The notes under the pieces were generated by a model. It was not told where the DNA came from. It saw only the letters and a list, made by a program, of their open reading frames with translations, and ran no database searches. A stretch of DNA of 64,000 nt from Ktedonobacterales bacterium (lineage in GTDB: Bacteria; Chloroflexota; Ktedonobacteria; Ktedonobacterales; JADMIN01), in NCBI GenBank assembly GCA_035716045.1, contig DASTKI010000165.1, forward strand, positions 80 to 64,079. Reading direction: 5' to 3'. Both the position numbers and the translations under genes were made by a program. The first letter of the stretch is position 1. Each line of letters opens with the position of its first letter. This document shows, piece by piece, positions 21,260 to 47,162 of this stretch.

Positions 21260-21297
21260 CCTCACCCACGCCCCACCATGCCGGCTTCACCAGCGCC

Positions 21298-21323
21298 GTG
21301 CGCCAGCCATTCATGGCTGCGCC
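21298..21323 (+). repeat. Family C repeat (gtgcgccagccattcatggcNgcgcc)
   Basis: Lies between the convergent TIR and MCP genes. Confidence 0.8.
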
Positions 21324-23517: not shown

Positions 23518-23597
23518 GCGCCTCGCCTCCCTCTCGGCCCGTACCCGTGCGGCCTCTCGTCCACTATGCCCGCCATGCCTGGCTTCGCTCAGCCGCC

Positions 23598-23622
23598 GTG
23601 CGCCAGCCATTCATGGCCGCGC
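23598..23622 (+). repeat. Family C repeat
   Basis: gtgcgccagccattcatggccgcgc, upstream of the MCP start. Confidence 0.8.
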
Positions 23623-42573: not shown

Positions 42574-43398
42574 ATGCGCGTAATGATCTGGGCCGACATG
42601 GAGGGCATGGCTGGCATCGAGGTCTGGGAGCAGGTCACCGGCGGCCATCCTCAGTACGAGGAAGGCCGCCGCCTGATGACCGGCGAGGTCAACGCCGCCG
42701 TGCTCGGCGCGAAGGCCGCGGGCGCCGATGACATCATCGTCGTGGACTGCCACGGCGCGGGCGGCTCCTACAGCTTCAAGACGCTGATTCCCGACAAGCT
42801 GGAGCCCGGCGCGAGCTACGTGCTCGGCTACCCCTGGCTGCGCTATGTCGAGCCGCTGCGCGCTGGCTGTGACGCCTGCCTGCTCATCGGCGCGCACGCC
42901 ATGGCCGGGACGGCGAACGGCGTCCTCTGCCATACCGTCAGCAGCGAGGCGTGGTACAACGCCCGCATCAACGAGACGCTGGTAGGCGAGAGCGGACTGG
43001 AGGCCGCCGTCTTCGGCGCATTCGACGTCCCCGTCGCCTTCGTCTCCGGCGACCGCGCCACCTGCGACGAGGTGACGGCCCTACTCGGCCCTAAAGTCGT
43101 GACCGCCGAGACGAAAGAGGGCCTGGGCCGCTTCTCCGCCCGCACCCTCAGCCACGCCGACGCCTGCGACCTGATCGAGGCGCGCGTGCGCGAGGCGCTG
43201 GAGCGACACGACTGGCCCGACCCCTGGAAGCCCGCCCAGCCGATCACCTTCACCGTCGAGCTCGCCGCCCCCGACCATGCCCAGTCCTATATCGGTCGCC
43301 CCGGCCTGGAGGTCGTCAACGCCCGTACCGTCATCGCTCGTGGCGCCCCCGACCACACCTTCTGGGACATCTGGGACAACTTCTGGTATCGCCGCTGA
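42574..43398 (+). CDS. D-aminopeptidase, peptidase family M55 (DppA-type)
   Basis: MRVMIWADMEGMAGI...VVDCHGAGG...IGAHAMAG matches the M55 metal-ligand pattern. Confidence 0.8.
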   Translation: MRVMIWADMEGMAGIEVWEQVTGGHPQYEEGRRLMTGEVNAAVLGAKAAGADDIIVVDCHGAGGSYSFKTLIPDKLEPGASYVLGYPWLRYVEPLRAGCDACLLIGAHAMAGTANGVLCHTVSSEAWYNARINETLVGESGLEAAVFGAFDVPVAFVSGDRATCDEVTALLGPKVVTAETKEGLGRFSARTLSHADACDLIEARVREALERHDWPDPWKPAQPITFTVELAAPDHAQSYIGRPGLEVVNARTVIARGAPDHTFWDIWDNFWYRR

Positions 43399-43878
43399 CA
43401 GGCGCACCCGGCAGGCGCGCGCCACAGCTGAGCGACGGCGCCAGACGATTCGCGTGACGAATGGCGCCCGTAACGCTCGCCGTAACGAGTCCGTTACGGG
43501 CTCCCCCTAGAATGATGGGAGAAGGATGGGAGAGAAGGAAACCTCTTCTGTCCAGGGCGCTCGTCGTTCGTGTCGTCGCGCTCGCCCAGACGTAGCCCGT
43601 TTGCGCCGTTTCCCTGTTTGTCCCCGGGCGACCATCTCCGCGGCCACGACGCGGATGAGGAGCGCATGATGCCAGGTCCAGGTTCGGCAGGCATATTCCG
43701 ATACGCCGGCTGGTCAGCATAGCGATCGCCGTCCTGACGGTCGCCGGTTTCCTGGTATGCTTCTTAGGTTCGCTGATCTGGCTCTTCGGCCTGGGGCCGG
43801 CTTCTCGCCACCGCGGTGATGGATTACGGCGCATCCCTATCCCACTGAGCGCGCTCGCGAGGGAAAGGATGGAGAACC

Positions 43879-44307
43879 ATGTTTACTCGGGCCATGCGAT
43901 GGACGTACCTGGTGTGGGCGTGGATCATTCTGGCGGCAGTGATCGTGCAGTTCTTCCTTGCTGGGCTGGGAGTCTTCGCTGGCGTGAGCAACTTTCAGAC
44001 GCACGCGAATTGGGGCTACACGCTCTTCTTCGTCATGCTGCTCTGGCTCGCGCCTGCGTTCGCCGCCCGGCTTCCGTGGGGGACGATTGGCCTGACCGCC
44101 CTGGCGCCCGTCCTTGTCCTCCTCCAGTCAGTCTTCATCGCGATGTGGCATGGCGGCTTGCCCGCCGTGGCGGCGCTACATGTCGTGAACGGCCTGGCCA
44201 TCTTCGCGCTGTCAGGCTTCCTGGCGCTTCAGGCGAGGCAATATCTCACCACGCATCTCCCCGCGCATGAGCCCGCATCCATGGACGCGGGCGCGTCAAC
44301 AGGATGA
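43879..44307 (+). CDS. Small 4-TM membrane protein, function unknown
   Basis: 142 aa with four hydrophobic helices. RBS ggaaaggatggag lies upstream. Confidence 0.55.
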   Translation: MFTRAMRWTYLVWAWIILAAVIVQFFLAGLGVFAGVSNFQTHANWGYTLFFVMLLWLAPAFAARLPWGTIGLTALAPVLVLLQSVFIAMWHGGLPAVAALHVVNGLAIFALSGFLALQARQYLTTHLPAHEPASMDAGASTG

Positions 44308-44578
44308 CCCGAATGCCGTGACACGTGAGGCTCCGCGAACGATCGCGCCGCTTGCGCCCATGCCGGCGCATCACAAGGCTCGTGGATGGCGTAGAGCATG
44401 GCGCGCCAGCATACTCGAGCGCGTCATGCTCCACACCGCCTCATCGCGCCATAGTCGCGCGCCTAGCCGTACTCCACTCTTGGCGTCACGCCCGCCCGCT
44501 GGGCCACTGCGGCCGCAAAGACTGCGCCAGGCGACTCCCCGGACGCGAGCGACGCAGCGCCGCCCACATCACGCCCGG

Positions 44579-44719
44579 CTAGTGGCTGAATCTCACCGCG
44601 TCGGTGTTGCCGCCGCAGATGATGACGCCGACGCGCTCGCCCGGCGCCGACTGGTACTTGCCGGAGAGGAGGGCGGCGATGCCGCCTTTGCCGTTTAGAT
44701 GCGTTGGCGCTAGAACTGG
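44579..44719 (-). pseudogene. Displaced remnant of a threonine-dehydratase 3' end (attR-like copy)
   Basis: Own translation ...NGKGGIAALLSGKYQSAPGERVGVIICGGNTDAVRFSH* compared with the intact gene end ...GGATAFAALLSGKYQPAPGERVGVIICGGNTDAVAFHH*. 54 nt are identical (caccgcgtcggtgttgccgccgcagatgatgacgccgacgcgctcgcccggcgc). Confidence 0.75.
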
Positions 44720-44803
44720 CATAGCGCGGGCTCATTGCGGCGCCGCCTCGCATGATATGCTATACCCATCGTTCCCGCCATCCGCATCGAGGAGAGAAAC
44801 GCG

Positions 44804-45034
44804 ATGGGCGCACTGCCAGACCGCATCGTCATAGATCCCGCGATCAATCATGGCAAACCCGTCATTCGCGGCCTGCGCTATCCAGTCGAGACATTGCTCG
44901 AACTGTTGAGCGCTGGTATGACGATTGACGACATCCTCGCGGACTATGAAGACCTAGAACGTGAAGATGTGCTTGCCGCGCTGGCCTTCGCCGCGCGCCT
45001 CACACATATCCAACGTATAGAATCCATCGCATGA
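44804..45034 (+). CDS. DUF433-family antitoxin-like protein
   Basis: IDPAINHGKPVIRGLRYPVETLLELLSAGMTIDDILADYEDLEREDVLAALAFA is the canonical DUF433 pattern. Confidence 0.85.
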   Translation: MGALPDRIVIDPAINHGKPVIRGLRYPVETLLELLSAGMTIDDILADYEDLEREDVLAALAFAARLTHIQRIESIA

Positions 45035-45047
45035 TTGGCTCGGTGGC

Positions 45048-45401
45048 ATGAGGTTTCTGGTGGATGCGCAACTGCCTCGCCGGATCGTCTATCGCATGCG
45101 CGAGACGGGCCACGATGCGTTGCATACACTGGACCTGCCGCATGGGAACCGTACGCCTGATGCGGAGATCATCGCGATTGCTTCGCGTGATGATCGTATT
45201 GTCGCAACAAAAGACGCCGACTTCGTGAACTCGTTTGTGCTGCTGCGCCAACCACCCCGCTTGCTCTTGATCTCCACTGGCAACATCAAGAACGCTGATC
45301 TGGAAACACTACTGCTATCACAGATGGCGAACATTGAGGCCGCATTCACCACATGCGATTTCGTCGAGCTGACCCGCCAGGCGCTTGTCCTGCGCGCGTG
45401 A
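45048..45401 (+). CDS. DUF5615-family PIN-like putative toxin
   Basis: MRFLVDAQLPRRIVYRMRETGHDALH...DAEIIAIASRDDRIVATKDADF. Starts 14 nt after the DUF433 gene, the usual two-gene arrangement. Confidence 0.85.
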   Translation: MRFLVDAQLPRRIVYRMRETGHDALHTLDLPHGNRTPDAEIIAIASRDDRIVATKDADFVNSFVLLRQPPRLLLISTGNIKNADLETLLLSQMANIEAAFTTCDFVELTRQALVLRA

Positions 45402-45450
45402 GCACGCGCCTATTTGATAGAGCCCTGGCCTTCGGCCCGAACAACGCCGC

Positions 45451-46395
45451 TCAGTGGTGGAAGGCCACCGCGTCGGTGTTGCCGCCGCAGATGATGACGC
45501 CGACGCGCTCGCCCGGCGCTGGCTGGTATTTGCCGGAGAGGAGGGCGGCGAAAGCCGTCGCGCCGCCTGGCTCGGCCACCAACCGCAGCGCCTTCCACAG
45601 CGCCTCTTGCGCCGCACGGATGTCGTCGTCACTCACCAGCGTCACGCCAGAGACATACTCTTGCGCCAGTGGGAACATCAGCGAGCCGACCTGGCGCGGG
45701 GCCAGTGAGTCGGCGGCGATGCTGCCGGTGGGCGCGTCCACCGGATGGCCCGCCTCCAGCGCGTTGTAGAGCGTCGGCGCGCCCTCCGGCTCGACGCCAA
45801 CAACCTTCACCGCGCCGCGATACCACGCCGCGACGCCGCCGATCAGCCCACCGCCGCCAACCGCCACGAGTAGCGTATCAATCGCGCCGTCCTGCTCCTG
45901 CAGCTCGCGGCCCAGCGTCCCCTGGCCCAGCAGCGTCTCCACCTGCTCGAAGGGATGCACAGGGAGCGCGCCGCTGCGCACGCGGAACTCCTCGCTGGCG
46001 GCGTGCGCGTCAGCAAAGCGCTCGCCCGTCACGACCAGCTCCGCGCCCAGTTCGCGGATGCGCGCGATCTTGGCCGGCGAGGAGATGGTAGGAACGAAGA
46101 TCGTCGCCGGGACGCCGAGCCGTTGCGCGGCGAACGCCACCGCCACACCGTGATTGCCGCCCGACGCCGCCACCACGCCCGCCTCGGGAATATCACGCAG
46201 CAGCAGATTGGCGAAAGCCCCGCGCGCCTTAAACGAGCCCGCGTGCTGCAGCAACTCCAGCTTCACCGCCAGCGGCCCGGCGGGCAGGCCGAAGTCCTGG
46301 CCATCCACCGCGATGAGCGGCGTGCGGCGGATGTAGGGGGCGATGCGCTCGTGGGCCTCCGCGATGTGCTCCGGCGCGATCGGCGATTCGGTCAT
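45451..46395 (-). CDS. Threonine/serine dehydratase (PLP-dependent, fold type II)
   Basis: PLP-lysine motif LQHAGSFKARGA, glycine loop ASGGNHG, 314 aa. Confidence 0.85.
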   Translation of the reverse strand: MTESPIAPEHIAEAHERIAPYIRRTPLIAVDGQDFGLPAGPLAVKLELLQHAGSFKARGAFANLLLRDIPEAGVVAASGGNHGVAVAFAAQRLGVPATIFVPTISSPAKIARIRELGAELVVTGERFADAHAASEEFRVRSGALPVHPFEQVETLLGQGTLGRELQEQDGAIDTLLVAVGGGGLIGGVAAWYRGAVKVVGVEPEGAPTLYNALEAGHPVDAPTGSIAADSLAPRQVGSLMFPLAQEYVSGVTLVSDDDIRAAQEALWKALRLVAEPGGATAFAALLSGKYQPAPGERVGVIICGGNTDAVAFHH

Positions 46396-46430
46396 GTCGT
46401 CTCCATTGACTATTCGTGGCTATTCGGTCG

Positions 46431-47162
46431 CTACTCAGCGGGCAGGCGGGCGCTCTCTTCGAGCAGGCCGCCCTCGCGCAGGTGGGTGATGTCGTTGAGG
46501 GCCATCAGCAGGCGGCGCTCGCCCAGCGCGCGCGCCACCGAGACGCTGGTATTGGCGGCAGGGAAGAAGTAGTCACGGTCGAGGCTGAGGATGCTGGCGA
46601 AGAAGGCGTTGATCGCGCCGCCATGCGAGAAGACCGCCACCCGCTCGCCGGGGTGCGCCGCGTGGATACGCGCCACCGCCGCGTTCACACGCGCCCGTAG
46701 CGCCTCAGATGGCTCGCTGCCCGGGATCACGCTCCACTTGCCCACCTCCACGGCGATGCCAGCGATCTCGCGCAGGCGCTGGCGCAGCAGCTTCGCTACC
46801 GCCGCCGGGTCGGTCAATCCCTCCACCTCGCCGCCGACCGGCCCCAGCTCCACCTCACGCAGATCGTTGTCGAGCTGGACTTCCAGCCCCAACGTATCGG
46901 CCGTCGGGCGGGCAGTCTGCACGGCGCGGCCCGTCGGACTGCTGTAGATCGCCGTGGGCTTGTAGAGCGCCAAGCGCCGCGCCAGCGCCTGGGCTTGACG
47001 TCGTCCCAGGTCGCTCAGCGCCTGCGCGTCATAATCGCCCATCACGATCTCGTCCTGGTCCGGCAGGGCGTCGCCATGCCGCACGAAATAGATCTCCGTC
47101 CCGCCGCTCTTCAGGCCCAGGAATGGGTCGCGCGCCTCGCGCCCGGTCTCGTCAGATGCCAT
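46431..47162 (-). CDS. Histidine phosphatase family protein (PGAM-like)
   Basis: RHG motif EIYFVRHGDALP, plus LSDLGRRQA and a C-terminal SHGG. Confidence 0.8.
   Translation of the reverse strand: MASDETGREARDPFLGLKSGGTEIYFVRHGDALPDQDEIVMGDYDAQALSDLGRRQAQALARRLALYKPTAIYSSPTGRAVQTARPTADTLGLEVQLDNDLREVELGPVGGEVEGLTDPAAVAKLLRQRLREIAGIAVEVGKWSVIPGSEPSEALRARVNAAVARIHAAHPGERVAVFSHGGAINAFFASILSLDRDYFFPAANTSVSVARALGERRLLMALNDITHLREGGLLEESARLPAE

Follow-up and report, generated by a model that had tools for sequence, protein, structure and literature searches.

How can a toxin-antitoxin (TA) operon come to stand alone between two copies of the end of a dehydratase gene, with no recombinase gene beside it? 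The question is raised by a stretch of 64,000 nt from a Ktedonobacterales metagenome-assembled genome (MAG; assembly GCA_035716045.1, contig DASTKI010000165.1, positions 80 to 64,079 of the forward strand), henceforth the window, in which a gene pair of the DUF433 and DUF5615 families lies at the 3' end of a threonine/serine dehydratase gene and is bracketed by direct repeats of that gene's last codons. The answer favoured here, with a confidence slightly above even, is that the cassette came in joined to a replacement gene end and recombined in the stretch that both ends shared, most likely via host homologous recombination. The argument draws on the anatomy of the locus, its foreign composition and the single gene end of relatives, together with the findings that the layout recurs and that the repeat copies at other loci diverge as alleles do. 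The features of the locus are as follows.

44421..44554, minus strand: remnant (last ~32 codons) of the native downstream membrane-protein gene (blastn matches in L029 6500-6637, 79%, and L031 9721-9817, 78%)
44579..44679, minus strand: repeat copy P, the displaced spare gene end (...AALLSGKYQSAPGERVGVIICGGNTDAVRFSH, then stop), from alignment and repeat search
44680..44803, plus strand: 124-nt cassette leader, presumed promoter/operator, with the ribosome-binding site GGAGAG, from direct reading
44804..45034, plus strand: DUF433 (COG2442) antitoxin gene, 76 amino acids (aa), 13 nt upstream of the toxin gene (Pfam DUF433, E = 6e-25)
45048..45401, plus strand: DUF5615 PIN-like toxin gene, 117 aa, intact (Pfam DUF5615 2e-25, PIN_10 3.5e-6, Mut7-C 1e-5)
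45394..45409, plus strand: G+C-rich hairpin overlapping the toxin stop codon (GCGCGTGAGCACGCGC then CTATTTGATA), a consensus match only
45402..45450, no strand: 49-nt spacer from the toxin stop to the dehydratase stop, cassette-side sequence with no homologue in relatives
45451..45551, minus strand: repeat copy I, the working gene end, last 33 codons and stop (...AALLSGKYQPAPGERVGVIICGGNTDAVAFHH, then stop), from alignment and repeat search
45451..46395, minus strand: PALP-family threonine/serine dehydratase gene, 314 aa, the target gene (Pfam PF00291, E = 3e-69)

Anatomy of the repeat

The repeat was defined by direct reading, MAFFT alignment, repeat search and a script, all of which agree. 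The two 101-nt copies, at 44579-44679 and 45451-45551, are spaced by 872 nt and are identical at 91 of 101 bases, with an identical core of 54 nt (44594-44647 = 45466-45519), a 32-nt arm on the gene-body side that holds 3 differences (codons AAA/AAG and CCA/TCG), and a final 15 nt that hold 7 (GCC/AGA, CAC/AGC, and the stop, which is TGA in the working copy and TAG in the spare one). Upstream of the repeat, homology ends sharply, with 10 matches in the adjoining 30 nt, which is the level of chance. The spare copy remains in frame and ends in its own stop (...DAVRFSH, as against ...DAVAFHH in the working gene). The original prediction, made from the letters of the window, had described this recurrence of the gene end, its 54-nt core and the stop of the spare copy; the description is confirmed, with coordinates that were right within a few bases. 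A BLAST-type search of the 3.97-Mb assembly returned these two copies and no third; the second scores E = 4e-35, the next-best matches span at most 42 nt with E of at least 0.005, and the repeat is therefore not a product of chance.

The ten differences between the copies fall into five codons without any insertion or deletion, and the stop, changed at two bases, is still a stop. A mismatch-free run of 54 nt amid ~10 differences in 101 nt has, by our own rough estimate, a chance of ~0.004. Such a pattern fits two diverged coding alleles joined in the core, and not a decaying duplicate. Sliding identity along the dehydratase gene gave no clear breakpoint. The dehydratase orthologues (84-90% aa identity) are named threonine or threonine/serine dehydratase by public sources, and Pfam backs the PALP fold only.

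An imperfect 17-nt inverted repeat lies inside the core (45463-45479 / 45497-45513, and again 44591-44607 / 44625-44641), 82% complementary with a 17-nt spacer; it is not conserved in the related genome G009 and is probably a chance feature of G+C-rich coding sequence. Spare ends of this kind are pseudogene fragments that gene callers may list as small open reading frames (ORFs), for example 44579..44722.

The toxin-antitoxin cassette

The 771 nt between the copies have a G+C content of 0.56-0.60, whereas the flanks reach 0.70-0.72 and the genome as a whole 0.668, and the only Pfam-supported genes within them are those of the DUF433 and DUF5615 proteins, both on the plus strand and both intact. 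The GC profile and Pfam thereby bear out the earlier description of a lower-GC segment with only these two genes, and, together with the relatives discussed below, they support that of a minimal, compositionally foreign TA cassette at the dehydratase 3' end without a recombinase. The DUF433 match spans 56 of the 56 profile positions. The toxin, compared with 81 homologues, has D6, D23, H26, T27, D29, N34, D38, K55, D56, D58, N79, N82 and E107, and keeps every column of at least 90% conservation except two non-acidic ones (M17, R116); the conserved acidic residues of a PIN-like toxin are present (D6, D38, D56, D58 and E107). The closest toxin matches, at 68% aa identity, occur in genome contigs and in metagenome contigs alike.

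By family and gene order, the pair is predicted to belong to the VapBC-like type II class PIN-COG2442 (DUF5615-DUF433). The PIN-COG2442 class was proposed by comparative genomics and validated for VapBC10 (ssr2962/slr1767) of Synechocystis, for which growth arrest, rescue, binding of the antitoxin to the promoter and ClpXP-dependent activation have been described (PMC3834315); the earlier statement that DUF433 plus a PIN-like protein is an established TA type is accordingly backed at the bench. The window resembles VapBC10 in that a single operon encodes a DUF433/COG2442 antitoxin and, downstream of it, a PIN-type toxin, a likeness of family and gene order. The paper on VapBC10 leaves the mode of insertion of such loci aside (PMC3834315).

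The leader (44680..44803) shares its last 55 nt with the cassette of the related genome G002 and has no match elsewhere; a consensus search found no sigma-70 promoter in it. The hairpin at 45394..45409 is possibly the terminator of the TA operon, with one hairpin-type site found against 0.8 expected by chance, and Rfam has no match in 43400-46500. The repeat search found no terminal inverted repeats at the cassette ends 44680/45450, and neither ORFs nor Pfam gave an integrase, transposase or other mobility gene between 44680 and 45450. Two familiar kinds of element were rejected on this anatomy. A transposon or insertion sequence would call for terminal inverted repeats, a transposase and a fixed short duplication, rather than repeats that range from 21 to 379 nt across related cassettes. 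An integron cassette was discarded because the repeats are the neighbour's coding end, terminal inverted repeats are lacking and no integrase stands nearby, a dedicated attC model search having been left out. Unlike an integrase-mediated element, the cassette has no tyrosine or serine recombinase gene between 44680 and 45450.

Relatives and native context of the locus

A dehydratase orthologue occurs in only 3 of 12 other genomes of the genus (G009, 89% aa identity; G002, 88%; G007, 84%), so that the gene is present in 4 of 13 with the source genome included. Each of the three relatives has a single dehydratase gene end, and no partial copy of it was found within 14-16 kb of the gene in G009, G002 or G007; the comparison for which the original prediction had called thus yields an uninterrupted gene end in all of them. 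The cassette DNA has no match in the assemblies of G009 and G007, where the dehydratase is followed by a membrane-protein gene of ~560 aa. It is the remnant of this native neighbour that lies at 44421..44554 of the window.

The 10 nt past the stop of the spare copy (GCGTGATGTG) are the native downstream sequence of G009, and the native-neighbour remnant follows; it is therefore the spare copy that has kept its link with the old downstream DNA. The three sense codons before the stop of this copy, TTC AGC CAC, are those of G009. Close orthologues end in xFSH, xFRH or xFNH, which the spare tail RFSH fits and for which the working tail AFHH is atypical in the genus. On this synteny and this tail pattern, the spare tail RFSH is taken to be the probable resident one. 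The window also shows that ~1.6 kb of the membrane-protein gene is deleted, with a junction within ~25 nt of the spare copy, and the segment 44421-44578 thus records a rearrangement directly beside the insertion.

In G002, a DUF433 gene 93% (aa) and 85% (nt) identical to that of the window lies 1.3 kb from the dehydratase gene (88% nt identity). In that genome (L030, G002:C87, 5592-7216), a low-GC HAD hydrolase gene takes the place of the toxin gene from about codon 4 onward, the antitoxin is an orphan whose gene has its upstream side at most 28 nt from the stop of an acyl-CoA synthetase gene, and no spare gene end was found. DUF433 without a toxin also occurs in four other genomes of the family (L044, L050, L054, L055). 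The interval between the M55 peptidase and the dehydratase is different in all four genomes (window 42574-46395, compared with L029, L030 and L031): in G009 and G002 it holds a dehydrogenase, an HAD-type dehalogenase and an acyl-CoA synthetase, and in the window a DUF6220 gene instead. Because its content differs among the four genomes, the interval is regarded as a hot spot.

Recurrence of the layout at unrelated genes

Of the 7 complete homologous TA pairs in loci of the family, 5 stand between direct repeats made of local sequence; the pairs are ~70% identical at the nucleotide level, and the loci are unrelated. The repeat periods are 728-932 nt, with one of 1.9 kb, and the targets are the 3' part of a tRNA-Arg(TCT) gene, the ends of an MMPL gene (its last 27 codons) and of a gene for a 427-aa protein (its last 7), and the 5' end of a pentapeptide-repeat gene. 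The tRNA case, in genome G021, duplicates the tRNA-Arg(TCT) from its anticodon stem onward, as far as the 3' end. Beyond the family, 20 of 80 genome loci from many phyla are bracketed, as against 3 of 120 size-matched shifted controls, and an independent set of metagenome contigs gives 19 of 50 loci against 1 of 27 controls. The same architecture stands in the complete genome of Roseithermus sacchariphilus (CP030158.1, L108) and on contigs of 0.8-1.6 Mb. Among the targets that Pfam confirmed are MutS, an ABC-F ATPase and an ABC transporter, together with the 5' ends of genes for an APH-type kinase and a pseudouridine synthase; in all, homologous cassettes adjoin more than 20 unrelated target genes with no common site, and inspection by eye of the cassette/repeat junctions at 30 loci revealed no common motif.

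The unique part between the repeats is the TA operon only, with a median gap of 92 nt ahead of the antitoxin gene and of 45 nt behind the toxin gene, and on the cassette side the repeat typically stops only a few bases from the stop codon of the target. Not every pair of loci counts as independent. The Nostoc and Chthonomonadaceae loci are 86% identical throughout, the contig labelled 'Nostoc sp. CHAB 5824' (L115; 2.4 kb, coverage ~2.4) matching the Chthonomonadaceae MAG contig L133 at that level with the flanking pseudouridine-synthase gene included; L115 is probably a contaminant contig in the Nostoc assembly.

In two pairs of orthologous loci, the same right end of the cassette (...GCTGAC(C/A)C(C)GTTT...) adjoins spare copies of unequal length: 67 versus 254 nt at mutS (L086 1061-1170 and L158 3342-3635), and ~48 versus 379 nt at an ettA-like gene (L159 1465-1556 and L141 3339-3760). 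Either deletions have repeatedly ended at the cassette border, or the end of the cassette may be a defined joining point. In the ettA-like-gene cassettes of L159 and L141, a fossil of the mutS tail (AAGCTGGTGTAAGAT) lies ~45 nt before the DUF433 start; it comprises four codons, a stop and three more bases, 15 nt that are identical to the mutS end beside the sister cassettes L086 and L158. Its presence at the ettA-like gene shows that a cassette, in changing gene, carried along a piece of its old neighbour's end. No fossil of a former target was found inside the window's own cassette.

The source genome itself holds further small low-GC cassettes with the same bracket, and their cargo is wider than TA pairs.

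C134 6127-7988: AbiEii/AbiEi pair, with a terminator-like hairpin in the repeat
C232 7116-7809: dodecin cassette
C57 32463-33626: CsbD-like cassette
C103 1632-2687: Clp_N-domain protein cassette
C97 13569-14940 and C47 8745-11213: cassettes that hold, between them, a 370-aa membrane protein gene and two unannotated ORFs
C212 43885-46075: three-repeat array at a methyltransferase gene's 3' end (the gene itself, 45972..46787 on the minus strand, is intact)
C9 15687-18974: 3.2-kb element between 56-nt repeats (98% identical), seemingly tRNA-derived

The repeats that bracket the cassettes from C134 to C47 measure 60-180 nt, and several end at the stop of the neighbouring gene. In the C212 array, three copies of the gene end separate a second, distant DUF433/DUF5615 pair and a gene for a 297-aa WD40 protein, and the middle copy still ends in a stop (TAA, as against TGA). 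The C9 element starts with a 63-aa fragment like the N-terminal domain of a phage integrase and has an HNH-like ORF inside; it appears to be a decayed, integrase-borne islet. Elsewhere in the window, a direct repeat of 51-54 nt (21272-21322 / 23569-23622, 89% identical) surrounds a high-GC ORF of 756 aa; similar PCASHSW-coding motifs occur nearby, and this repeat may be a dispersed one and not a cassette bracket.

Nature of the two repeat copies

Longer repeats at other loci reveal what the copies are. At the ABC-F gene end of L141 (379 nt, 86% identity), 41 codon differences are synonymous and 4 non-synonymous, and the stops are TAG and TAA; at the mutS end of L158 (254 nt), the counts are 14 and 3, with a TCT/AGC serine switch among the differences. 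Decay of a spare copy next to a constrained one would yield, by our own estimate, ~0.7 synonymous differences per non-synonymous one. These counts were limited to loci whose frame was checked by hand or by Pfam (L141, L158, L104 and L142), automatic frames being wrong-stranded at several high-GC loci. In all six cases in which the stops differ between copies (the window, L086, C97, C232, C212-B and L141), both remain stops. The synonymous excess and the retention of stops argue that the copies are the ends of two alleles that both once worked, and not products of duplication on the spot. Across the pooled short repeats, differences are enriched at third codon positions (29 of 53, p = 0.001).

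Proposed origin of the insertion

For the direction of import, the enzyme and the activity of the TA pair, we infer the following course of events. A VapBC-like operon of foreign composition would have entered the chromosome joined to the last ~100 nt of another lineage's dehydratase gene. One reciprocal exchange inside the stretch common to both gene ends, marked today by the 54-nt core, would then have put the cassette directly after the stop codon and left the working gene a hybrid, complete nonetheless, with a resident body and the imported tail AFHH and its stop. As a result, the resident tail RFSH, with its stop, would have been displaced 872 nt downstream as the spare copy, still joined to the old downstream DNA, to give the order of gene body, hybrid working end, cassette, hybrid spare end and old downstream DNA. 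Such an order has the topology of a Campbell-type insertion, like that of e14 at icd/icdC. The exchange is proposed to have been carried out by host homologous recombination, either on a circle or on a linear piece, homologous at one joint and illegitimate at the other, and not by a dedicated integrase. Once in place, the pair would be expected to act as an addiction or stress module, in which the toxin cleaves RNA and a labile antitoxin binds both the toxin and the promoter of the operon.

Host recombination is favoured because the targets are more than 20 in number, unrelated and without a common motif, because the cassette has no recombinase and the assembly few, because repeat length is so variable (21-379 nt), and because the cargo extends to genes other than TA pairs. 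Several points nevertheless weigh against the proposal. RecA is poorly served by homology of 54-100 nt, or of 21-50 nt as at some other loci. The repeat at tRNA-Arg, which extends from the anticodon stem as far as the 3' end, has precisely the look of an integrase att site, and one tRNA-linked element of the source genome retains the truncated N-terminus of an integrase. As a test of the native tail, distance to G009 or G007 ends in a tie, with 11 of 15 matches to G009 for each copy. The synonymous excess at the other loci could also have come from later allelic replacement of the working copy, and the excess at third positions is not decisive, given that the working copy is constrained and third-position GC extreme. 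Since G002 shares the antitoxin gene, the cassette may be old at this locus and its perfect core the outcome of later gene conversion. Moreover, no dehydratase of more than 90% aa identity occurs among 5.8 billion proteins, hence there is no empty site from the same species, and the assembly is an incomplete MAG.

Alternative explanations

Site-specific insertion is the alternative that survives best, although it is judged unlikely. It would make the cassette a non-autonomous element, either a satellite or one akin to the cis-mobilizable elements (CIMEs), served by an integrase in trans, or else the remnant of an island that has lost its integrase and cargo and in which the addictive TA pair survived. 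The structure equals that of the element e14 at icd, where the working end reaches into the element and a C-terminal pseudogene is displaced (PMC13626634). Further in its favour, the homologous cassette of G021 duplicates a tRNA-Arg(TCT), a classic integrase target, the tRNA-linked 3.2-kb element on C9 keeps its 63-aa integrase fragment, and the core of the window holds the imperfect 17-nt dyad. MAG binning also tends to lose islands that bear integrases. However, for one TA family to reach more than 20 unrelated targets without a common motif, an integrase of its own would be needed for each. The assembly, 76% complete, has matches to two tyrosine recombinases (PF00589) and one large serine recombinase (PF00239) only, on contigs C58, C104 and C24, none of them near the cassette. 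A fixed att site is ill matched by repeats of 21-379 nt that occur at the same target with the same cassette end, and random decay of islands would not leave, in ~30 independent cases, a unique part that consistently amounts to the operon alone, set off by some tens of nt at either side. Of the original prediction, the insertion of a cassette therefore stands, whereas its site-specificity is unproven: in view of the varied targets, the few recombinases and the resemblance of the copies to diverged alleles, a homology-guided event of the Campbell type fits at least as well.

A true long target duplication, in which staggered breaks ~100 nt apart were filled in as the cassette was captured, so that both copies are resident and the spare one has since drifted, is considered improbable. 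It is the published reading for restriction-modification (RM) genes that have long, variable direct repeats and no mobility gene (Nobusato 2000, as cited in Furuta 2010, PMC2853133); several repeats at other loci are 96-100% identical, and the adjacency of one cassette end to spare copies of unequal length at the same target would agree with it. The differences within the window, however, cluster in whole codons with frame and stop kept, the synonymous ratios of L141 (41:4) and L158 (14:3) lie far from the ~0.7:1 estimated for decay, changed stops are still stops in 6 of 6 cases, and the tail that is atypical for the genus is the working AFHH, not the spare one.

An assembly artefact, by which two strain variants were joined through the 54-nt core, would be conceivable in a MAG of 252 contigs that is 76% complete, but it is very improbable: the junction of leader and spare copy at 44679/44680 is unique sequence that no mixture of strains would create, both flanks are syntenic with relatives, and the layout recurs in independent assemblies, including the complete genome CP030158.1 (L108) and the contigs of 0.8-1.6 Mb. 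Finally, a decayed tandem paralogue of the dehydratase, its remainder replaced by the TA pair, is scarcely credible even though the copy keeps an open frame and a stop, as homology is cut off sharply 33 codons before the stop, the three further PALP-family matches in the source genome are 27-34% identical (aa), the same layout occurs at many unrelated genes, and the decayed paralogue without a TA pair that the original prediction had named as its refutation is not seen in G009, G002 or G007, each of which has one gene end and no partial copy within 14-16 kb.

Comparison with known insertion systems

The closest published parallel is insertion with long target duplication (ILTD), described for RM gene complexes, with a mechanism given as unknown (Nobusato et al. 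2000, Gene 259:99; Furuta, Abe and Kobayashi 2010, PMC2853133). Both cases involve an addictive gene pair of atypical composition with no mobility gene. Likewise, both show direct repeats of more than 30 bp and variable length, single-copy at a related empty site and, in the RM case, often overlapping a gene's 3' end (PMC2853133). The window has repeats of 101 nt with one copy each in G009, G002 and G007, and between the repeats only the two TA ORFs have Pfam support. That both copies come from the resident is clearly contradicted at L141 and L158 by the ratios quoted above; in the window, the differences are codon-wise, the stop is changed yet still a stop, and the two tails are equally distant from G009. 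The cargo also differs, being a type II TA pair rather than an RM system, the copies at informative loci are diverged alleles under purifying selection rather than two copies of the resident target, and the double-strand break by a restriction enzyme that was proposed for RM systems has no counterpart in an RNase-type toxin. A literature search found no paper that joins ILTD with TA cassettes.

Similarly, e14 (and phage 21) at icd of E. coli supplies a replacement 3' end, and the resident end is displaced as the pseudogene icdC; excision of e14 rebuilds a chimeric gene, according to PMC13626634, which cites Hill et al. 1989. The window shows the same elements, namely a replacement end, a displaced resident end and a block of identity inside the repeat. 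The difference lies in the machinery, since e14 is 15 kb long and has its own integrase/excisionase and a defined att site, whereas the present cassette measures 0.77 kb and holds a TA operon only.

CIMEs are integrase-less derivatives of integrative elements, reportedly described by Pavlovic and colleagues in 2004 in the ICESt1 family of Streptococcus thermophilus, and are said to share with the window a cargo between att-type direct repeats and the lack of recombination genes of their own. Unlike the cassettes considered here, they reportedly share the att site of a known integrative and conjugative element and depend on its integrase for mobilisation; here, no integrase-bearing counterpart was found, and the targets vary by locus. 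Chromosomal integrons, such as the superintegrons of Vibrio, carry TA gene cassettes of one or two genes in repeat-separated arrays, a likeness best seen in the three-repeat array on C212 with its TA pair and WD40 gene. In contrast to integron cassettes, the repeats here copy the coding end of a neighbouring gene, and no integron integrase, attI or, short of a dedicated attC model search, attC site was found.

Significance

The locus clearly exemplifies a variant, widespread and for TA systems apparently undescribed, of a known type of insertion. A broader proposal, held tentatively and with less than even confidence, is that TA operons and, in the source genome, other cassettes of one to three genes are widespread enzyme-free mobile elements, which would use a piece of a gene terminus as a portable homology tag; host recombination would insert them at the orthologue of a new host to give a hybrid gene and a displaced spare end, recombination between the ends would release the cassette again, and imprecise events would shift it to another gene and leave fossils of the tag, such as the mutS tail at the ettA-like gene. 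The spread of chromosomal TA loci is usually credited to carriers such as plasmids, phages, integrons and transposons. The present locus and its ~45 sister loci indicate that TA operons enter chromosomes alone, at the ends of housekeeping genes that are left unbroken, and without a recombinase of the cassette's own. Should host recombination, acting on a gene-end tag that the cassette carries, suffice, it would explain why TA and RM genes occur as isolated islets between conserved genes. The working end, the spare end and the fossils of former ends would then form a sequence signature by which transfers could be dated and traced, and the 25-year-old question of the ILTD mechanism would become testable with a construct of 0.9 kb.

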